Source: Candidatus Eiseniibacteriota bacterium (lineage in GTDB: Bacteria > Eisenbacteria > RBG-16-71-46 > JABDJR01). From it: a DNA stretch of 64,000 bases. The position numbers and the translations under genes are program-made. Position 1 is the first letter of the stretch. Each line of letters begins with the position of its first letter. The stretch spans positions 256,001 to 320,000 of the forward strand of contig CAWANH010000028.1 of the NCBI GenBank assembly GCA_963783375.1, read 5' to 3'. Below the pieces are notes generated by a model. The model had not been told where the DNA came from. It did not search any database and saw only the letters and a list, made by a program, of their open reading frames with translations. This document shows positions 1-22,886 of this stretch, piece by piece.

Positions 1-2400
1 CTGAACGTCGACGGCGACCGGCGCTCCGCCACTTTCGTCCTGGGCGCCCACGATCACTTCTACGGGACGGGGGAACGCGGCATCGCCCTCGATCTCCGGG
101 GCCGGGCCTTCGACACCGCCAACCAGGCGTTCTACGGCTACGGCGCTCCACCCCCCACCATGAACCTGAACGTGCCGTTCCTGGCAAACCTCGCCGGGTG
201 CGGGATCTACTTCGACAGTTCCTGGCCGGGGCGATTCGATCTGGGGGCGGGCAACACGAACCGGTTCAGCTACACCGCGAACGGCGGAGAGCTTTCGTTC
301 TACGTCATTGCCCAGGCCACCGTTCCCGCGCAGATCGAGGCCCTGACCTGGCTCACCGGGCGCCAACCCATGCCCCCACGCTGGGCGCTGGGCTACCTGC
401 AATCGAAATTCGCCTACCGGAACGAGGCCGAGGTCCGCGCGGTGGCCCGGGGCTTCCGGGACCGCGGCATTCCCTGCGACGGGATCATCCTCGATCTCTA
501 CTGGCAGGGGCCGGTGAGCGAGATGGGGAACCTGAGCTGGGACCGCGCCGCCTGGCCGGACCCGTTCCGGATGATGCGCGATCTGCGGGCGGACGGCTTC
601 CGCACCATCGCCATCACCGATCCGTACCTGACCCGGGAGTCGGCCCGGTTCGCGACCGCGCTCGAGCGCGACGCCTTCGCCCGGGCGGCGACGGGAACGC
701 CCTACCTGCTCCAGAACTTCTGGGCCTGCGGCTGCCCCGCCGGGCTGGTGGACCTCACCGATCCCGCGGTGCAGAGCTGGTGGTGGAGCCTCCACCCGGA
801 TTTCATGGGGGACGAGATGGCCGGGCTCTGGACCGATCTCGGCGAGCCCGAGCGCCACCCCGACGGCATGGTTCACCACCTGGGCCCCGCCCCCGAGGTC
901 CACAACCTGTTCAACCTTCTCTGGGCCAAGACCGTGTTCGGGGGGTTCCGCTCCTTCCACCCGGACCGGCGGTTCGTGAACCTCACGCGCTCGGGGTTCG
1001 CGGGCATCCAGCGGTACGCGGCCTTCCCCTGGACCGGCGACGTGCAAAAGTCCTTCGCGGGGCTGGCCGGCCAGATTCCGCTCCTTCTCAACACCGGGAT
1101 GTCGGGGATCGGGTACCTGGGGTCGGACACCGGGGGGTTCTGTTGCGGCGCCACCACTCCCGAACTCTACGCGCGCTGGATGGAGTTCTCGGCCTTCGGC
1201 CCGATGGCCCGCGCCCACAGCGGCGACCAGCCCGCCGAACCCTGGGCATTCGGCGCCCAGACCGAGGCGGTGGCCCGTTCGTTCCTGCGGCTTCGGTACC
1301 GGCTCCTCCCCTACCGCTACACCCTGGCCTGGGAGAACCACCGGACCGGCATGCCCCTGGCGCGGCCGCTCTTCTTCGCCGACCCCGCCGACCCAAGGCT
1401 CCGGGACGTGACCGACGCCTATCTCCTGGGCGGCGCGTTCCTGGTCGCTCCGGTGGTGCGGGACGGCTGGCGGCAGCGGACGGTGCCGCTTCCGGCCGGG
1501 GACTGGGTGGATTACTGGACCGATGAGCGCGTGAAGGGAGGCGCCGACGTCACCGTCTCCGCGCCCCTGGAGTCGATGCCCCTCTTTGTTCGGGCGGGAA
1601 GCCTGGTGCCGATGCAGCCGGACGCGGAGCACACCGACGGGCCGCCGTCGGACACGTTGATCGTGGCCGCCTACCCGGCGGTCGACGCGGGAGAGCGGCG
1701 GTTCACGCTCTACGAGGACGACGGCGAGAGCCTGGGGTACATGCGGGGGGAGTTCGCCCTCACCGACATCAGCCAGGCGGTCGCCCGGGCCGACTCCGAG
1801 GTCTCGGTCTCGGTCACCTTCGACCCAAGCCGCGGGGTCTACCCCGGCATGCCCCGGGCGCGCACGTACCGGGCGGAGATTCATGGGGTGGGCCGCGAGC
1901 CCACGGCGGTGACCCTGAACGGCCGGCCGGTGAGCGGATCGGGGACATCCGTTGGGTACGCCTACGACGCGGTCGGGAACGTGCTTTCGATCACCTTCCC
2001 CGCCTCCCCGGACAGCGGCTACCGGGTGGTCGCCGAGAACGTGGGCGAGCCCTACACCGAGCCGCCTGCGGAACCGTCGTTCACGGCGGCCCTGGGCCAG
2101 AACGTCCCCAACCCGTTCGACGGGGTCACCTCGATCCCCTACCGGCTTCGCCGGAGCGCGGCGGTGGATCTCCGGGTCTACGACGTGCGGGGCCGGGAGG
2201 TGGCGCGGCTCGAAGGCGTCCGGGTCGGCCCCGGGCCTCATCAAGCGCAGTTCCAGGCCTCGGACGAGGCGGGGCGGCCCCTGGGAAGCGGCATGTACTT
2301 CTACCGACTGCTGGCCCGCGAAATCGCCGGAGACGGGAGCCTGGCCCCGCCGCTCCCCATCCCGCCGCGCCGGATGATCCTGCTCCGCGGAGGGCGGTGA
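1..2400 (+). CDS. GH31 glycoside hydrolase (alpha-glucosidase/xylosidase-like) with C-terminal FlgD-Ig/T9SS-type domain; 5'-partial
   Basis: Frame is open from base 1. GH31 motifs LTGRQPMPPRWALG, WTDLGEP (nucleophile Asp), WTGD, YEDDGES. C-terminus GQNVPNPF..LRVYDVRGREV..SGMYFYRL. Confidence 0.92.
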   Translation: MNVDGDRRSATFVLGAHDHFYGTGERGIALDLRGRAFDTANQAFYGYGAPPPTMNLNVPFLANLAGCGIYFDSSWPGRFDLGAGNTNRFSYTANGGELSFYVIAQATVPAQIEALTWLTGRQPMPPRWALGYLQSKFAYRNEAEVRAVARGFRDRGIPCDGIILDLYWQGPVSEMGNLSWDRAAWPDPFRMMRDLRADGFRTIAITDPYLTRESARFATALERDAFARAATGTPYLLQNFWACGCPAGLVDLTDPAVQSWWWSLHPDFMGDEMAGLWTDLGEPERHPDGMVHHLGPAPEVHNLFNLLWAKTVFGGFRSFHPDRRFVNLTRSGFAGIQRYAAFPWTGDVQKSFAGLAGQIPLLLNTGMSGIGYLGSDTGGFCCGATTPELYARWMEFSAFGPMARAHSGDQPAEPWAFGAQTEAVARSFLRLRYRLLPYRYTLAWENHRTGMPLARPLFFADPADPRLRDVTDAYLLGGAFLVAPVVRDGWRQRTVPLPAGDWVDYWTDERVKGGADVTVSAPLESMPLFVRAGSLVPMQPDAEHTDGPPSDTLIVAAYPAVDAGERRFTLYEDDGESLGYMRGEFALTDISQAVARADSEVSVSVTFDPSRGVYPGMPRARTYRAEIHGVGREPTAVTLNGRPVSGSGTSVGYAYDAVGNVLSITFPASPDSGYRVVAENVGEPYTEPPAEPSFTAALGQNVPNPFDGVTSIPYRLRRSAAVDLRVYDVRGREVARLEGVRVGPGPHQAQFQASDEAGRPLGSGMYFYRLLAREIAGDGSLAPPLPIPPRRMILLRGGR

Positions 2401-14656: not shown

Positions 14657-16144
14657 GTGCGCCTGTCTTTCCCCCATGGTCCGTCATTGGGCCTCCACCC
14701 CCGATCCCGGCTCCGAACCACCCTGGTCCTGACCGCCCTCCTGCTTCCCGGTCTGGCCCCCCGGGTCCACGGGGCCGAGACCCCGCCCCCCGGCTACTAC
14801 CTCCGGGACTTCGCCGCCGTGGCCACCCCCACCGCGATGGCCTTCGGGCCCGACGGCTGGCTCTACTGCACCACCGTCAACGGCCGGGTCTACGCGTTCC
14901 GGGACGCGGACGGGGACGGCGTGGCCGACTCCACCGCCCTCTTCGCCCAGAACCTGGTTCGTCCCCTGGGGGTGGCGCCTCACGGTGGGGCGATCTACGT
15001 TTCTTCCCTTGGACGGGTGGCTCGATACTGGGATCTGGACGGGGACCACGTGGCCGACCTCGCCGATACCCTGATCACCGGGCTCCCCTTCGGCGCGCAC
15101 CAGAACAGCGGCATCGCCTTCGGTCCCGACGGAAACCTGTACGTCACGGTAGGGACGACGACCAGCACCGGGATCCAGACCCATCCCTGGGCCGGCACCA
15201 TTCTCCGGTTCACCGCCGACGGGACCTTCGATGAGATCTTCGCCGGGGGATTCCGGAACCCCTACGATCTGGCCTTCAACAATCAGGATGAACTCTTCGC
15301 CACCGACAATTCCCCGAGCGGCGACAGCACCTGGACCTGCTACGAGGCTCCCGATGAGCTGAACTGGATCCAGCGAGGCGCCAACTACGGGTTCCCCTAT
15401 TGTTTTGGATCGGGAGACTGCATCGATTTCGGGAGCGCCTGCGTCAGCCCGCCCTGCGGGGCCGGGGATTGCGAGTGGGGACAGGGATGCAAGAACTGGA
15501 TGACCGAGCCGATCTGGCTCCTCGATCCCCACTCCTCTTCCGACGGACTCTGCTTCGGCGACGGCTTCGCCGGCTTCGGCTCCACCGACCTGTTCGTGGC
15601 CCAGTGGGGCCAGGACGAACCGGTTGCGGGCTGCAATTTTCTGACCGGACGCCGGGTGGTCCACATCACCGTCCGTCGGCGGGGCCAGAAGTGGGTCGCC
15701 GAGAACGAGGAAGACTTCGTGACCGGCCTGCGCTCCCCCCTCGCCGTCCGGGTGGGACCGGACAGCTCGCTCTACATCGCCGACTTCTACGACGGAAAGA
15801 TCGTCCGCCTGGCCAGGACCGGGGTGACCGGAGTGGGGGGTGGGACCGGCCTGGGCGGAACACGGGCCCGGCTGGCCTTCCGGGCTGATCCGAATCCCGC
15901 CCGGGGCCCCGTCACCCTTCACTGGACGGCGCTCCCCCCCGAGGGCACGGTGACTCTGGAGGTGTTCGACGTGACGGGCAGGAAGGTGGCCGATCTCGGT
16001 TCCTTCCGGCGGCCCGATTCCTTGCCCGACGTGCGATGGAGCCTCCGGGACGACTCCGGCCGCCGGGTCCCCGCCGGCCTGTACATGGTTCGGGCTCGAA
16101 GCGGGAGCACCACCGCTCTGGGCAAGGTGCTGGTGCTTCCCTGA
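14657..16144 (+). CDS. PQQ-dependent sugar/sorbosone dehydrogenase-like beta-propeller with C-terminal FlgD-Ig/T9SS-type domain
   Basis: Signal peptide; MAFGPDGWLY, IAFGPDGNLY, GFRNPYDLAF, DELNWI..GANYGFP, GPDSSLYIAD; C-terminal PNPARG..VFDVTGRKV..PAGLYMVR. Confidence 0.85.
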   Translation: MRLSFPHGPSLGLHPRSRLRTTLVLTALLLPGLAPRVHGAETPPPGYYLRDFAAVATPTAMAFGPDGWLYCTTVNGRVYAFRDADGDGVADSTALFAQNLVRPLGVAPHGGAIYVSSLGRVARYWDLDGDHVADLADTLITGLPFGAHQNSGIAFGPDGNLYVTVGTTTSTGIQTHPWAGTILRFTADGTFDEIFAGGFRNPYDLAFNNQDELFATDNSPSGDSTWTCYEAPDELNWIQRGANYGFPYCFGSGDCIDFGSACVSPPCGAGDCEWGQGCKNWMTEPIWLLDPHSSSDGLCFGDGFAGFGSTDLFVAQWGQDEPVAGCNFLTGRRVVHITVRRRGQKWVAENEEDFVTGLRSPLAVRVGPDSSLYIADFYDGKIVRLARTGVTGVGGGTGLGGTRARLAFRADPNPARGPVTLHWTALPPEGTVTLEVFDVTGRKVADLGSFRRPDSLPDVRWSLRDDSGRRVPAGLYMVRARSGSTTALGKVLVLP

Positions 16145-16497
16145 CCTTCCGGGCGGAGCCCGGGAACACGCAGTTTAGCCCCCCTGTTCAAACACGACGT
16201 GGAGCCGCCGGCCAAGCCCCACGGATAGCCTCACAACCGACGGAAATTGTCGCCAATCCCGCCAGTTCTCCCTCCCACCGACCCTTCCCCGGTTCCTTCC
16301 CGTCACCGCCGGCAATTTATCCCGGCAAGCGGGGGCAATTTCCATAAGGGGAACGCATTGCGCTTGAGTCGGCCCCGCTGAAGGAGCACAATGAACGTGC
16401 GCCCGGGGGGGCTCATCTTCGGCGTACCTCCGGGTCCGCCGGCAACATTCTCAAGCATCGAGTGGCGCCTGCCGTGCGCCACCGGAGGGAGGCGCGC

Positions 16498-17190
16498 ATG
16501 TACAAAGCTACCAATCGGTTTGCCTCGACGCTGGGTCTTCTCCTTGTCCTCGTCCTGGTGTTCGCGGTTCCCCTCCCCGCCCTGGCCGCCTCGACCACGA
16601 TGGCGATCAGCCAGGTCTATGGGGGAGGCGGAAACTCCGGGGCGACCTACACCAACGACTTCATCGAGATCCACAACCTGAGCCTGGTGGCGGTGGACGT
16701 GACCGGATGGAGCGTCCAGTACGCCTCATCCACCGGGTCCACCTGGCAGGTGACACCGATCGCCGGCGTCATCCCCGCGGGGGCGTACTTCCTGGTCCAG
16801 GAAGCCCAGGGGTCCGGCGGAACCACCGCGCTTCCCACCCCGGATGCGACGGGTACCATCGCCATGTCCGGGACGAACGGCAAGGTGGCCCTGGTGAGCG
16901 CGGAGACCGCCCTGAGCGGCACCTGCCCCTCCGACGCTTCCATCGTGGATCTGGTGGGCTACGGATCGGCCAACTGCTTCGAGGGTCTGGGCGCCACCCC
17001 GGCGTTGAACAACACCACCGCCGACTTCCGCCTCGACTTCGGGTGCTTCGATTCCGACGACAATGCCTCGGATTTCTTCACCGGTCCCCCCGCTCCGCAG
17101 AACAGCGCGTCCCCCGTCAACCTCTGCACGCCCCCGGTCTCCGACCAGGAGTCCACCTGGGGCGGCGTGAAGACGCTCTATCGGGACTGA
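16498..17190 (+). CDS. Secreted lamin-tail-domain protein with C-terminal TWG motif
   Basis: GGAGG RBS, signal peptide, ISQVYGGGGNSGATYTNDFIEIHN (lamin-tail domain), D.DDNASDF..P.P.NS; ends STWGGVKTLYRD. Confidence 0.85.
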   Translation: MYKATNRFASTLGLLLVLVLVFAVPLPALAASTTMAISQVYGGGGNSGATYTNDFIEIHNLSLVAVDVTGWSVQYASSTGSTWQVTPIAGVIPAGAYFLVQEAQGSGGTTALPTPDATGTIAMSGTNGKVALVSAETALSGTCPSDASIVDLVGYGSANCFEGLGATPALNNTTADFRLDFGCFDSDDNASDFFTGPPAPQNSASPVNLCTPPVSDQESTWGGVKTLYRD

Positions 17191-17234
17191 GTGACCGGCG
17201 CGATCCACCGAACCGGGCCGCGCCCGTACGAATC

Positions 17235-17270
17235 GGGGGCGGGGAGATGACTCCCCGCCCCCTTTCTTCT
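17235..17270 (+). terminator. Rho-independent terminator
   Basis: 12-bp perfect stem GGGGGCGGGGAG/CTCCCCGCCCCC, 4-nt loop, followed by TTTCTTCT; lies between convergent genes. Confidence 0.8.
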
Positions 17271-17322
17271 CCCCCCGGCAAGCCCCCGGGGGGCGCGGGC
17301 GCAGTTCGCTTCGACGCCGCCG

Positions 17323-18024
17323 CTACGGGCCGCAGTGCGCCGGGGAACCGATCGCGAACTTGATGTAGGGGCCGAGTATGGTGGCGTCGGCCCCCGAGGT
17401 CCCGTCCCCATAGGGCGCGGTGAAATCGGTGCACGGGTCGGCTAGGCCGAGTCCCAGGTTGGGAGCATGATAGCTGGCGTCGGCCGCGCTCACCGAGGTG
17501 ACTCCGCCCACCTCGTTGCAGGTCCCGGTCTCCGTGCACAGCTTCCCGTCGGTATCGTTGACGACGTCCGGGGAATTCACGGCCGGTTCGGCCAGGATGA
17601 TGTTGTCGGCCCGGACCTGCACGATGTACGACTGCCCCTGGTAGGCGTTCCACTGGATACAGCCGCCGCCCGCGATGTGGAAACCCACCTCGCCGTTCGC
17701 ATCCGTCACCCCGGTGTATTCCCGGTAGGGCTCGGCCGCGGTCTCCAGGTGGGACGGCGCGTCCCCGAAGCCGTCCGACCAGGCGATGAGATGGGTGGCG
17801 TCGGGAGAGAACGTGACCACGACCGTCGCACCAGGCACCGGGTACCCCTCCCCGCTGATCTGGGCCGCGAACTCGAAGGCGCCGTCCGGGGTGATGGTCA
17901 CCTGATCGGGAATGTTCGACTGGTTCGGGTCGGGGATCGGCCCGGCCAGGCCGGGGACCGCCCCGGTGGCCAGAGTTCCGAGCAGGACGGTACCGCAAAG
18001 GGCGTGAGGACTCCAACGTGGCAT
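17323..18024 (-). CDS. Secreted hypothetical protein, Ig-like domain plus degenerate dockerin/EF-hand-like C-terminus
   Basis: Signal peptide; TDANGEV.F.I.GGGC; NSPDV..VSAADA..TDF..GDGTSGADA paired repeats; several Cys. Confidence 0.6.
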   Translation of the reverse strand: MPRWSPHALCGTVLLGTLATGAVPGLAGPIPDPNQSNIPDQVTITPDGAFEFAAQISGEGYPVPGATVVVTFSPDATHLIAWSDGFGDAPSHLETAAEPYREYTGVTDANGEVGFHIAGGGCIQWNAYQGQSYIVQVRADNIILAEPAVNSPDVVNDTDGKLCTETGTCNEVGGVTSVSAADASYHAPNLGLGLADPCTDFTAPYGDGTSGADATILGPYIKFAIGSPAHCGP

Positions 18025-18189
18025 GGGGATACCTCCCGAAGATGTCAGGCTACTGAATCGCGCGGCCGGCCATCGGGTACACTCCCCGTACCAGGAGCAT
18101 ATCGCGATTTTCCCCCTCCCCCACGCCGGAATCGGCCCGGGCGGAGGGTTGAGGCGATCCGAAGCCGTTCCGGCCGGCCCCGGAAGGGT

Positions 18190-18813
18190 TCAGTATCGCG
18201 CGAGGCGGCCCCGGATCCACTTGAAGGGCAAGAACATGGAGACCCGGCGCCGGTAGGCCCGGTAGGGCTCGCCGAATTCCCGCACGAGCTTCCGTTCCTC
18301 CAGGAACGCTCCCGCGACCAGGTAGACGGAGAGCACCCCCGCGGTGATCAGCCCGGGAGCGGTCTTGGGGCCGGCGGCCAGGAACAGCACGCCCCCGGTA
18401 TACCAGGGGTGGCGGATCGCGCCGAGAATCCCCTTCCGGGAGAGCCCTCCCGAGGCCCCGAGCCCCGGGCCGCTCCGCCCGGCGCGAAGCTGGCGGAGTC
18501 CCAGGAAGGTCGCGGTGTCGTATACCTTCGCCCCCGCCCAGAAGAGGTAGAGCGATGCGGGAAGAAGGATCGCGGTGACCGGGACCCACCCACCCCACCA
18601 ATCGAACACCACCGGGCCGTCCAGGGAACGCGCGAACAGGAAGACGGCGAGAAAGGTCGCGGCGGCGAGCAGGTTGTACCCCAGGCGGTAGAACCGCGCG
18701 CGGGGTCCGAGGCCGGCGGTGATCCGGTCGCGCACCCCGAGGGCGATGAGCCCGCTGTGGAGAGCGCACCAGGCGACCCAGGCCAGGGCGAGAATCCAGA
18801 GCCCTCCGGTCAT
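18190..18813 (-). CDS. Isoprenylcysteine carboxylmethyltransferase/NnrU/MddA-like membrane methyltransferase
   Basis: LHS in TM1, YRLGYN, IRHPWY, EERKLVREFGEPYRAY. Confidence 0.8.
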   Translation of the reverse strand: MTGGLWILALAWVAWCALHSGLIALGVRDRITAGLGPRARFYRLGYNLLAAATFLAVFLFARSLDGPVVFDWWGGWVPVTAILLPASLYLFWAGAKVYDTATFLGLRQLRAGRSGPGLGASGGLSRKGILGAIRHPWYTGGVLFLAAGPKTAPGLITAGVLSVYLVAGAFLEERKLVREFGEPYRAYRRRVSMFLPFKWIRGRLARY

Positions 18814-18865
18814 GAGCGCGGAGCGCCCCGGCGCCCCGGTTCACCGCCGCCGCCCGAAGGCCGGT

Positions 18866-21033
18866 TCAACGCGGGTAGAATCCGGCGGCGCGCTTCCGGA
18901 GGGCCTCGGAGGGAGCAAGCCGGGGCCCGACCGATCCGGCCAGAGCCTCCAGGCGGTCGACGATCGCCCCCACCCCGCGACGATCCGCGTAGCGGAGGAG
19001 ACCGCCCCGGAAGGGCGGGAACCCGGTTCCCATGACCATGCCGAGGTCCACGTCCAGGGGGCGCGAGGCGATCCCCTCTTCCAGGCACCGGGCGGCCTCG
19101 TTCACCATGGGGAGCACCAGCCGGTCCACCACGTCCTCGGGGGTGAACTCGCGAAGCGTCGGGTTTCCCGCCGCCTGCCGGGCTTCGGGGGAGGGCTCCC
19201 CCTTCCGGCCCGCGGCATAGACGTAGAACCCGCGCCCGGACTTCTTCCCGAAGTGCTTCCCGGCGGTGAGCCGCCCCAGGGTGGCCTCGGGGGGAGACGG
19301 TCCCCGAAGGCCGATTCCAATACGTGAGTGACTTTTTCCGCGACGTCGAGACCGATCTGGTCGAGCAACGCGTAGGGTCCCACCGGCATCCCGAAGTCCG
19401 CCAGCAGGCGGTCCACCCGGACCGGGTCGGCCCCGCTTTCCAGCAGATGGAGCGACTCGCCCAGGTAGAACGCGAGGAGACGGTTGACCAGGAAACCGGG
19501 ACCGTCCTGGACCAGGATGGGGGTTTTCCCGAGATCCAGGGCCAGCCGGTAGGCCGCGGCCACCGCCCGCTCCGAGCTCCGCGGACCGGCCACCACCTCC
19601 ACCAGGGGCATCCGGTCCACCGGGTTGAAGAAGTGGAGCCCCACGATCCGCTCGGGACGGCGGGCGCCCTCCGCGATGTCGGCGATCCGGAGGGAGGAGG
19701 TGTTGGAGGCGATGACCGCGTCGTCGCGCATCGCGGCCTCCATCTCCGCCACCACCTTGCGCTTCACCTCCAGGTTCTCCACCACCGCCTCGACCGCCGC
19801 GTCCACCAGGTTGAAGCCGGTGTAGTCGAGGGTGAAGGAGAGCTTCTCCACCCGGCGGTCGCGCTCGTTCCGGGTGATCCGCCGGCGGCGCGCGCTCTTC
19901 GCCCAGAGGGTCCCCGCGGTGTGCACAGCGCTTTCCAGGGCTTCGGGGGCGATGTCCTTGATCCGGATGGGGAGCCCGCGCTCCCCGGCCAACCAGGCGA
20001 TCCCGCCCCCCATCACCCCCGCGCCGACCACCGCCAGCCGCGAGGCCCTCGCGGCCCCGGCCAGGTCCAACCCCACCGGGGTCTTGGCCTCGGAGGAGAC
20101 CTCGAACAGCCAGCAGAGATTCTTGGAGGTTTCGGTGACGATGGCTTCGCCGAGAAGCCGGGCTTCGTTCCCGTAGGCCGTGGTCTCCCCCATGGAGAAC
20201 CCGCCCACGATCGCCTCCAGGGCGGAGAACGGCGCCGGATAGTGGTCGGGGCGGATGTTTCGGGCCACCGCGCCCCGCGCCTTCCCCGCGATGAAGTTGC
20301 GGATGAAGGGAACCCCGGCCAGGAGACGGTCGGTGCGATCGGGCCGGTGGGGCGTCACCCGGCGGGACCCGGTGAGGATCTCGCGGGCCACCCGGCGTCC
20401 CATCCCCGGGGGGACCAGGGCGTCCACCAGCCCGCGCCGGAACGCGGGCCTGGCGGGGAGGGTCTTTCCGGCCAGGATCAGGTCGAAGGCGGTCCGGATC
20501 CCCACCCGGCGCGGGAGGCGCTGGGTTCCCCCGAAGCCCGGAATGATGCCCAGCTTCACCTCGGGGAGCCCGATCTTCACCGCGTCCCGATTCTCGGCCA
20601 CCCGGTAGCGGCAGGCCAGGGCCAGCTCGAACCCGCCCCCCAGACAGGACCCGGCGATGACCGCGGCGGTGGGTTTGGGGAACCGGGCGATCGCCTCCAT
20701 CACCGCCTGGCCGTAGGCCGACTTGTTCTGGCCGATCCGGGGATCGGTCACCCCGGCGATCTCCTTCACGTCGGCCCCGGCGATGAAGTTGTCCGGCTTC
20801 TCGCTGACGAAGGCCAGGGCCGTCACCCCCCGCCGTTGAGCCTCGTCGAGCAGATCCCGGAGCGCCTCCATGAGCGGGGTGGTGAGCTTGTTCACCTTCT
20901 CCCCGGGGAGGTCGAACAGGATCCAGCCGATGCCGTCGGGGTCCACCTCCAGGCGGACCCCGCGCGCGGCGGTGTCCGGGGCGGGCCGCGAGGGACCCTC
21001 GAAGTCCAGGCTGGTCTGGGGTTTCTCGTTCAT
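18866..21033 (-). CDS. fadJ: Fatty-acid oxidation multifunctional subunit (enoyl-CoA hydratase/3-hydroxyacyl-CoA dehydrogenase), split by a 1-nt frameshift at about 19290
   Basis: [61 protein letters not shown]. Adding one base in the G6 run at 19289-19294 restores GKKSGRGFY...[10 protein letters not shown]. Confidence 0.88.
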
Positions 21034-22322
21034 GCCCGCTCCAGGACCACGGCGCCCCCCTGGCCGCCGCCGATGCAAAGGGTGACCAGTCCCAGCGCCG
21101 CCGCCCGTCGCCGCATCTCGTAGAGCAGCGTCAACACCAACCGCGCCCCCGTGGCTCCCACCGGGTGCCCGAGCGCGATAGCCCCTCCGTTCACGTTCAG
21201 GATCCCGCGGTCGATCTCCCCCACCGCGCGCATGAGCCCCAGCTCTTCCCGGGCGAAGGCGTCCGAGGCGAAGGCGGTCTCGTTGGCGATGACCTGGGCC
21301 GCGAACGCCTCGTTCATCTCGATGAGCTCGACGTCCTTCCACGACACCCCGGCCGCGTCCAGAGCCTTGGGAGTGGAGAAGACCGGCCCGAGCCCCATGC
21401 GGGAGGGTGCGAGCCCGGCGAACTCGACGGAGCGGACCCAACCCAGCACCGGCAGCCGGCGCTCGGTGACCGCCTTCTCCGAGGCCATGACCAGGGCCGC
21501 CGCCCCGTCGGTGATCTGGCTGGAGTTCCCCGCGGTCACGCTCCCGTAGCGCCGGTCGAAGACGGTGGGAAGCTTGGCCAGGGCCTCCATGGATTGCTCG
21601 TGCCGGATGCCCACGTCCCGGACGGCGAAGCGGTCGTAGTCGGGGGGGAGCGGAACCGGGACGATCTCCTCGGCCAGCCGGCCCGCCGCCTGGGCCGCCG
21701 CCGCCCGCTGGTGGCTCTGGAGCGCGAGCTCGTCCTGGGCCTTCCGCGACACCTGGAACTCCCGGGCCAGAACCTCGGCGGTCTCTCCCATGTTGAGACC
21801 GCAGTAGTTGTCGGTCAGCCCCACCGCCAGGCCGATCAGCGGCGAGAAGTCGGCGGGGCGAAACGACGCGAAGGCGGCGAGACGGGCGGGGAGCGTCCGG
21901 GCCCGCATGACGCGCTCGAACTTGGCCTTGGCCCCCGGCCGGAAGAAGAGCGGGATCTGGGACATGGACTCGGTCCCGCCCACCGCGATCAGGTCGGCCC
22001 GGCCGAGCCGGATCCGGTGCATGGCGTCGGCCACCGCCTGGAGACCCGAGCCGCAGTTCCGGTTCACGGTATAGGCGGAAGTCGAAAGCGGACAGCCGGC
22101 CCGGAGCGCGATGACCCGGGAGATGTTGGTGGCCTCGGCCGGCTGGGCGATGTTCCCGAAGATGACTTCCTGGACGTCCCCCGGAGCGGTGCCCGCCCGC
22201 TCCAATGCCTCGCGCAGAGCCACCCGCCCCAGCTCGTAAGCGGGAACGCGCTTCTGGTCCGCACCCATCTTGGTGAAGGGGGTCCGGGCTCCGGCGACGA
22301 CGGCGACGCGTGGTGTGATCAT
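21030..22322 (-). CDS. fadI: Acetyl-CoA C-acyltransferase (thiolase)
   Basis: ARTPF, TVNRNCGSG, NSSQITDGAAA, NEAFA, GGAIALGHPVGATG, LCIGGGQG; stop overlaps the fadJ start. Confidence 0.9.
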   Translation of the reverse strand: MITPRVAVVAGARTPFTKMGADQKRVPAYELGRVALREALERAGTAPGDVQEVIFGNIAQPAEATNISRVIALRAGCPLSTSAYTVNRNCGSGLQAVADAMHRIRLGRADLIAVGGTESMSQIPLFFRPGAKAKFERVMRARTLPARLAAFASFRPADFSPLIGLAVGLTDNYCGLNMGETAEVLAREFQVSRKAQDELALQSHQRAAAAQAAGRLAEEIVPVPLPPDYDRFAVRDVGIRHEQSMEALAKLPTVFDRRYGSVTAGNSSQITDGAAALVMASEKAVTERRLPVLGWVRSVEFAGLAPSRMGLGPVFSTPKALDAAGVSWKDVELIEMNEAFAAQVIANETAFASDAFAREELGLMRAVGEIDRGILNVNGGAIALGHPVGATGARLVLTLLYEMRRRAAALGLVTLCIGGGQGGAVVLERA

Positions 22323-22442
22323 GGCGCTATCGATTGTGCCCGGTCGGACGGATTTTCGCCAGGGGCACGCTCGGGGCGCGCACGGAGGCCGGACGTCATT
22401 CACGATCGGGGGAGTCCGCTTCCCGACCCTTGACCTAGGCGA

Positions 22443-22886
22443 CTAGTAGTGGGCCTTCAGGAGCCCCCAGGTGACCGGCACCACCGGGGTGGTGGACGTC
22501 ACGGTGAAGCCGAGCGCCACGGTGTCGGGAGGCGTGACGATGTCCCCCCGGGCGTCGAAGCCGGTCAGGACGCCGACGAGCTCGTAGTGTCCGGGAGGGA
22601 GGGGGCCCACCCCGCAGGCCTCGTCCACCCGGCGGGCGGGGAGGAGGCAGGGCTCGTCCCGGCGGATGAGATCCACCGAGATCGTGCCGGTGGTGTCGCT
22701 CACGCCGCAGGAGACTCCCTGCACGTCCCAGCAGGTCCCGGGAAGTTCGGTGCTCAGCACGAACCCGATCGAATCCCCGGCCGCCGGATCCGGCGGCGTG
22801 ACCTGAAGCAGGAACGGGGGAATGTCGGCCGACGCCGTCGCGGCCAGGGATCCGAGCAGGAACAACGCGAGGATAGTCGATTTCAT
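22443..22886 (-). CDS. Small secreted hypothetical protein with C-terminal TWG motif
   Basis: Signal peptide (ATASA-D), 4 Cys, LPPGHY, ends PVVPVTWGLLKAHY. Confidence 0.7.
   Translation of the reverse strand: MKSTILALFLLGSLAATASADIPPFLLQVTPPDPAAGDSIGFVLSTELPGTCWDVQGVSCGVSDTTGTISVDLIRRDEPCLLPARRVDEACGVGPLPPGHYELVGVLTGFDARGDIVTPPDTVALGFTVTSTTPVVPVTWGLLKAHY

Follow-up and report, generated by a model that had tools for sequence, protein, structure and literature searches.

A 17-residue C-terminal tag on small proteins of uncultured bacteria is likely a detached piece of a type IX secretion signal

In a 64,000-nt stretch of a Candidatus Eiseniibacteriota genome (contig CAWANH010000028.1, positions 256,001 to 320,000; hereafter the window), two genes for proteins with signal peptides end in the same short motif, which we call the TWG tag. 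We find that the tag is a real, widespread, and uncatalogued motif, and its place in the sequences suggests that a type IX secretion system (T9SS) signal was its likely source, the tag being a minimal piece detached from that signal; we put the chance that it is read by a T9SS shuttle-type reader at about even. As an earlier note on this DNA had claimed, the 230-aa open reading frame (ORF) ends in PVSDQESTWGGVKTLYRD and the 147-aa ORF in PVVPVTWGLLKAHY, each opens with a hydrophobic, signal-like stretch, and the two proteins are unrelated, one carrying a lamin-tail domain (PF00932) and the other belonging to no known family, while in two other window genes the position of the tag is filled by a FlgD/T9SS-type C-terminal domain (CTD) (Table 1).

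To determine the extent of the tag, the whole 4.73-Mb genome (G000) was scanned with a position-specific scoring matrix (PSSM) built from 67 seeds and used at a score threshold of 20, the next scores being ≤17. Seventy-five ORFs scored above the threshold and 73 of these have the motif ≤13 residues from the stop, corresponding to 70 distinct tails after removal of duplicated contigs (some small contigs duplicate genes of C28 and C1). The 17-residue consensus tail reads [VT]-P-[VT]-E-x-[TS]-[TS]-W-[GS]-x-[ILV]-K-x-x-Y-x-stop. A strict regular expression, [ST]W[GS].[ILVM]K..[YF] placed ≤4 residues from the stop, matched 62 of the 66,750 stop-ended ORFs, and because shuffling the last 30 residues in 20 rounds gave no match in 19 rounds and one match in the other, the tag is not a product of chance. 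Eight matches lie farther from the stop: six are tags followed by 5–13 residue tails, one follows a signal peptide, and one is in an ORF without a gene call. With a rough gene caller, which called 67 of the 75 tagged ORFs, and a crude heuristic for signal peptides, 57 of the 67 called genes have a signal peptide vs 1105 of 3690 genes overall (30%). Thus, the motif is common in the proteome, restricted to the C-terminus, and enriched among signal-peptide proteins, as the earlier note had anticipated, and its description of the tag as lacking a transmembrane helix also holds, since the proteins end 0–13 residues past the Tyr with no hydrophobic segment. The passengers are diverse: 65 that are long enough for comparison were sorted by BLAST into 40 groups, 29 of which have a single member, and the recognized domains include lamin-tail, Big_5, beta-helix, fn3, X25, cohesin-like, and PepA-like, one passenger matching the PEP-CTERM protein family PepA (E 4e-7). 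The tagged proteins are small, with a median length of 229 aa vs 718 aa for 107 CTD proteins. Several tagged paralogs (G000:C28:705416-708056, C29:1343672-1344118, and C29:1503407-1504052) are seemingly broken by frameshifts and could be pseudogenes or long-read errors.

The tag extends well beyond this genome. Of 151 genomes in the phylum, 145 gave matches to a back-translated tag pattern, mostly 10–68 each vs 0–2 for the reversed control, the exception being family f5 with 0–5 matches per genome. A GTDB scan returned at least 122 stretches, and among the matches listed, 109 distinct real tails came from 126 matches; the 80 titled loci among them comprise 33 Eisenbacteria, 7 Latescibacterota, 4 Krumholzibacteria, 1 Zixibacteria, 27 unnamed bacteria, 3 under other labels whose tags are real, and 5 hits due to chance. 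The tag-rich genomes G164, G165, G185, and G196, which form a distant lineage, and the contigs that carry the tag in cis with a CTD (see below) are presumably Poribacteria. Viral contigs gave eight matches, seven in ORFs of ≤20 aa and one a real tag; the latter, with a real-looking tagged ORF, is on an IMG/VR contig of 64% GC (L673) that may be host DNA. Searches of Pfam, NCBIfam, and PDB sequences with 114 tag tails returned nothing meaningful, and no description of the motif was found in the full-text literature, subscription journals and supplements being outside its coverage. The tag-poor family f5 was considered as a natural knockout and set aside: 23 of 24 f5 genomes still have 1–6 pattern matches, and since the family also retains PorV-like genes, the PorV2-like clade described below, and LipA, it gives no contrast. 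Family f5 keeps the tag most often on one conserved lamin-tail-domain protein (L190-L219; G000:C3:207433-208362), which is likely a core cargo.

The tag-rich genomes tested also carry the SprA/PorV outer-membrane core of the T9SS. In G000, profile searches found SprA over the cut-off, 13 PorV-family matches of which 6 are over the cut-off, a PorU-like protein (377 of 420 bits) that has a C25 domain and adjoins the main PorV, several further C25-like proteins, and 119 ORFs with a C-terminal type-A-like CTD. In G164, G165, G185, and G196, an SprA-like frame of 2100–2300 aa, below the cut-off, was found together with 15–17 PorV-like matches each. Tag and CTD exclude each other in G000: they occur together in none of its ORFs, a CTD profile made for this genome has no match in the tagged ORFs, and the two occupy the same slot. 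The CTD proteins of G000 have T[GA]V[GP] linkers and no TWG motif; a linker regular expression picked after the data were seen, and therefore descriptive only, matched 58 of 109 CTD linkers and 39 of 75 tags against a 10% background. Eight of the 65 passengers have a domain in common with a CTD-bearing protein (for example, the neighbors C28:590810 and C28:591614), and 10 of 67 tagged genes have a CTD gene as neighbor vs 183 of 3509 genes. The SprA gene of G000 (L144:5042-11346; G000:C29:765039-771346) is apparently in two overlapping frames, an N-terminal one of 261 aa and the main frame, which may reflect a frameshift, an assembly error, or a true split.

A physical link to the T9SS signal comes from another lineage, in which the motif stands directly before a CTD. 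We counted the gap between WGx[ILVM]K and YPNPFN in a metagenome scan (at least 123 stretches), and among the matches listed it is 21 nt in 85 and 18 nt in 12, 97 together (the next most common gap had 9 matches). An earlier search that set the gap at 30–60 nt found the arrangement in 0 of 5 genomes, the real gap being 18–21 nt. The cis copies read x-[ASG]-V-[ETN]-P-x-G-K-x-x-x-T-W-G-x-[VI]-K-x-x-x-L-[YF]-Q-N-Y-P-N-P-F-N and are followed by a full CTD. At positions that the pattern left free, T stands at −1 in 72 of 86 and [GSA][VI] at −11/−10 in 68 of 86, among the matches listed. The latter agrees with the cleavage preferences of PorU given in two papers, X/(GSA)(VLI) (PMC4560394) and PT/GI (PMC11969387). 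The fixed gap and the PorU-type site suggest that the motif is likely the first element of a cleaved T9SS signal in the cis lineage, and judged by their sequences the tag-only proteins look like this cis signal minus its beta-sandwich. Because the cis copies stand directly before the CTD, the tag is probably not a wholly separate second system. The earlier note had proposed a second export or surface-docking signal with unknown machinery; the slot shared with the CTD stands and we keep export or docking as the presumed role, but a wholly separate system is improbable.

The behavior of the invariant Lys points to a single reader. When the Lys column was masked in the PSSM, Lys was still present in 65 of 65 tails. 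An Arg version of the pattern gave 10–33 matches in each of five f6 genomes and 10–14 in each of three f10 genomes vs 0–4 in the other 164 of the 172 genomes. On the PorV2-like gene tree, which covers one gene and has weak deep forks, the two families do not cluster with each other. Two families thus appear, from their sequences, to tolerate Arg independently at the otherwise invariant Lys. The relaxation is genome-wide across unrelated passengers and therefore fits one reader with a changed binding site. We looked for a corresponding change in candidate readers. In the main PorV (29 vs 8 Arg-tolerant rows), no column ≥80% conserved elsewhere is altered, and family-specific changes exist in both this protein and the PorV2-like barrel and are uninformative; a 28-strand barrel and LipA, introduced below, had only two Arg-tolerant rows.

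Taken together, we propose that small proteins likely reach the periplasm by their signal peptides and would then present the tag as a short, predicted helical element. One trans-acting envelope protein would bind it, most likely a dedicated PorV-family shuttle barrel, after which the tagged cargo would pass through SprA and be kept at the cell surface. Most G000 tags have Pro where PorU prefers G/S/A, so they would stay uncut and remain bound as anchors. The binding of the tag by a protein, the T9SS membership of the binder, and the arrival of the passengers at the surface are steps that we infer.

A candidate for the reader is a single-copy orphan PorV2-like barrel (G000:C29:452812-453843). 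In a FastTree phylogeny of 88 PorV-family rows from nine genomes, most G000 PorV paralogs adjoin their own CTD protein, and the PorV2-like clade, present in all nine genomes, had no CTD neighbor in 7 of 7 core rows (1.5-kb flanks). G165 and G196 have three sister paralogs each in this clade, and the barrel matches in 38 of 39 genomes, mostly once. According to PMC12618676, every class of CTD has a shuttle of its own, and cargos that are orphans are served by a common orphan shuttle. It is by analogy with these orphan shuttles for orphan type B cargos that we nominate the barrel; it is a guess, and one that would more probably turn out wrong. Most of the PorV-family genes of G000 directly follow a dedicated CTD protein (e.g., C29:826397, C28:1984574, C28:1483217, and C3:264590) that has a CTD but no flexible T[GA]V linker to it, which suggests uncut cargo-shuttle pairs outside Bacteroidota.

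Several results weigh against a T9SS reader in general or against this barrel in particular. The best family match of the barrel is PorV2 (NF052325) at 169 bits, below the 325-bit equivalog cut-off; the barrel is also found in G152, a genome without tag excess over the control, and is weakly present in the Bacteroidota genome G180; and a comparison of 33 rows with 9 Arg-tolerant rows found no altered column among those ≥80% conserved. Family f5 retains 6–11 PorV-like genes with only 0–5 tags. A protein with the tag before a CTD is absent from G000, and its free tags have Pro at the G/S/A position in 60 of 70, only 6 of 70 fitting the cleavage consensus (the same position is Ala in 25 and Gly in 7 of 109 GTDB free tags, among the matches listed). 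In addition, recognition of the T9SS CTD, according to PMC10994853, involves a beta-sheet wrapped by PorV loops and SprA, and the tag has no beta-sheet.

The atypical copies are a further difficulty. Four tandem tags end a LipB-type lipoprotein of G006 (L188, G006:C20), one copy is internal (L262), and one stands near the N-terminus of a 223-aa Cys-rich protein, immediately behind its signal peptide (L142:3424-4092; G000:C28:1279421-1280092); a metagenome scan for this protein gave no relatives. The tag is also on four lipobox proteins, and a convincing lipobox was found in 0 of 107 CTD proteins. Finally, it is on a single-transmembrane anti-sigma-like protein in 5 of 30 loci, and a membrane-tethered protein is not an ordinary T9SS cargo. 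This protein adjoins an extracytoplasmic function (ECF) sigma factor (L141:6954-8739; G000:C28:1952951-1954739) and is tagged only in family f1, on its periplasmic end; because the tag is confined to 5 f1 loci of the 30 read, it was probably appended. None of the homologs in the 30 loci has a CTD, and the tagged protein is possibly a sensor of the tag pathway. The tandem, internal, N-terminal, lipoprotein, and anti-sigma copies speak less for a signal that must be terminal than for a portable motif that binds and may be retained, and we therefore phrase the best explanation as docking to a T9SS-associated reader, with export as a presumed step.

In the window, the gene directly upstream of the tagged lamin-tail gene encodes the propeller protein of Table 1, whose CTD is preceded by a VTGVG linker. 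For the 147-aa protein, a single homolog was found (P0053, 66% identical), itself tagged, so that no CTD-bearing homolog is among its relatives. Between the two tagged genes, at 18866-21033 on the minus strand, is a gene that we take to encode a fatty-acid oxidation multifunctional enzyme, which is split over two frames near its 3' end.

Table 1. Tagged genes of the window and the CTD-bearing genes used for comparison
Feature	Position (nt)	Strand	Details
Lamin-tail protein with signal peptide and tag	16498..17190	+	230 aa from ATG 16498; PF00932 E 4e-12
Same lamin-tail ORF, longer start	16462..17190	+	242 aa from GTG 16462
TWG tag PVSDQESTWGGVKTLYRD and stop, lamin-tail protein	17134..17190	+	PSSM score 34.7; divergent linker
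147-aa protein with signal peptide and tag	22443..22886	-	No family below E 0.09
TWG tag PVVPVTWGLLKAHY and stop, 147-aa protein	22443..22487	-	PSSM score 44.1
Comparator without tag: propeller protein (DUF7133/GSDH) with FlgD/T9SS type-A-like CTD	14657..16144	+	TIGR04183 E 7e-4
Comparator: 3' part of a second CTD-bearing gene that starts before the window	1..2400	+	FlgD/T9SS-type CTD

The docking of the tag could also be independent of the T9SS. G000 has a single-copy, conserved operon upstream of secD/secF (L140:5210-8651; G000:C28:943210-946654) that encodes a predicted plug-less 28-strand outer-membrane barrel and the NTF2-fold lipoproteins LipA and LipB, in what is presumably the order tatD-ksgA-barrel-LipA-LipB-secD. 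The barrel is modeled with 28 long strands and no plug (predicted local distance difference test (pLDDT) 92.8, predicted template modeling score 0.76), has no close PDB match but only distant barrels (TM scores of 0.25–0.44), and belongs to no Pfam or NCBIfam family, and LipA is modeled as an NTF2-like lipoprotein whose TWG-like end forms a helix (residues 173–180, pLDDT 91.8); whatever its part in tag reading, the operon has the look of undescribed core envelope machinery. If this operon were the reader, the C-terminal TWGxLR helix of LipA would be a natural ligand or placeholder that the free tags mimic for export through the barrel or docking on it. The barrel adjoins LipA in 37 of 40 regions (two of them from one genome; the regions were picked by LipA/LipB matches), LipA is found in 33 of 42 genomes with 4 of the 9 misses being chance-hit genomes, LipA ends in [ST]W[GTC]x[LMAY][RKQ] in 26 of 39 rows, tagged LipB paralogs are located in the barrel operon, and LipA/LipB docking would explain the lipoprotein carriers of the tag. 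However, the barrel profile had no match in the tag-rich G164, G165, G185, and G196, in a search without a positive control, and we dropped the barrel as a universal reader; in the loci read, the NTF2 lipoproteins of the G165 lineage have neither the helix nor a barrel neighbor. LipA has Arg in 19 of 39 rows where free tags demand Lys, its end is degenerate in G000 (TLGSLH), and the cis position before the CTD is left unexplained. We consider the operon an unlikely reader.

Alternatively, the motif could be a recognition element for the PorU-like protein or another C25 transpeptidase, positioning the linker for cutting and anchor attachment, in which case the tag-only proteins would get to the surface differently or would be taken along by CTD proteins. 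The cis motif does sit 10 residues behind the PorU-type site, the C25-like proteins of G000 would supply the enzymes, and Ala or Gly occupies the cleavage position in some of the GTDB free tags, as counted above. But the prevailing Pro of the G000 tags at that position, the G000 CTD linkers that lack the TWG motif, and the tandem and N-terminal copies, which make no sense for a terminal cleavage signal, render a C25 target quite improbable.

To a similarly small degree, the tag might be a generic amphipathic cationic helix that sticks non-covalently to lipopolysaccharide, the membrane, or cell-wall glycan without any protein reader. Its net charge is +1 to +3 in 72 of the 75 tags, W, I/L, and L/Y lie on one helical face, position-independent and tandem copies are typical of wall-binding repeats, and a changed glycan ligand could also yield the Lys/Arg switch of a lineage. 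Nevertheless, the invariant W-[GS] and Lys together with the lineage-wide switch show more specificity than binding to lipid would require, the constant distance to the CTD would go unexplained, and the hydrophobic moment of the tag (0.35 as a helix vs 0.45 as a strand) does not favor a helix. The idea that the invariant Lys is a covalent acceptor (an isopeptide to peptidoglycan or to PorU-cut cargo), for which Braun's lipoprotein is a precedent and which accords with the retention of Lys under masking, is largely refuted and very improbable, because Arg, which is unable to accept, replaces Lys genome-wide in f6 and f10 (10–33 tags per genome in eight genomes).

Beyond docking to a T9SS shuttle-type reader, which we prefer, we tentatively suggest a wider reading: the tag would be a fourth class of T9SS signal. 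In this view, the front of the classical CTD would have become a free helical peptide of 17 residues, which by itself would direct dozens of small proteins per genome, as well as lipoproteins and a membrane-tethered anti-sigma sensor, to a dedicated shuttle barrel in several uncultured phyla; the Lys-to-Arg relaxation would mark the pocket of the reader, and the TWG helix of LipA would be a second use of the docking code. As a whole, this reading has a minority of the odds. As a T9SS signal, if it is one, the tag would be much shorter than those described (40–51 aa in PMC11969387), would illustrate how a secretion signal can divide into recognition elements that are separable, and would provide a very small tag for display. 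It is found on ~2% of G000 genes and, in Eisenbacteria-type and related uncultured lineages, on dozens of proteins in each genome. Almost all of these are annotated as hypothetical proteins, and a simple pattern is therefore enough to predict a surface or secreted proteome that was hidden. The reader is open to direct testing through the two Arg-tolerant families, the transition from cis to free motifs, and a few candidate barrels.

Among known systems, the tripartite signals (LPXTG/sortase, PEP-CTERM/exosortase, and GlyGly-CTERM/rhombosortase) place a transmembrane helix and a basic cluster behind a signature motif. The TWG tag is likewise short, C-terminal, portable, and present on many unrelated exported proteins including the PepA-family passenger, but it has neither the transmembrane helix nor the basic tail and matches no CTERM model. 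The T9SS type B CTD (TIGR04131), with PorP/SprF shuttles (PMC12618676), is a model for the mechanism in that a class has its own shuttle and the cargo is kept at the surface; it is a folded domain of at least 100 residues, with no sequence similarity to the tag seen. The short CTDs of Prevotella intermedia (40–51 aa; PMC11969387) and the 22-residue minimal signal of Hbp35, also cited there, show that a T9SS signal may shrink greatly without loss of cutting and anchoring. These keep the C-terminal beta-strands (motifs D/E), whereas the tag corresponds to the opposite, N-terminal end and has no GxY. The T9SS type A CTD (TIGR04183/PF18962; here of the FlgD_ig PF13860 type), which is carried by PorV and cut by PorU, is a seven-stranded beta-sandwich of 70–80 aa, and TIGR04183, PF18962, or PF13860 matched in 0 of 114 tag termini. 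Unlike it, the tag has ~17 residues, no beta-sandwich, and no motifs B/D/E, is found on small passengers only, mostly has Pro at cleavage position +1 in G000, and also occurs on lipoproteins, on the anti-sigma-like protein, and in tandem or at the N-terminus. Like it, the tag is C-terminal and portable, is carried by Sec-type proteins in the same slot after a low-complexity linker, co-occurs with SprA, PorV, and PorU, and in the cis lineage forms the N-terminal part of the CTD signal. The tag is therefore best filed as a variant T9SS sorting signal, outside both the type A CTDs and the tripartite CTERM signals.

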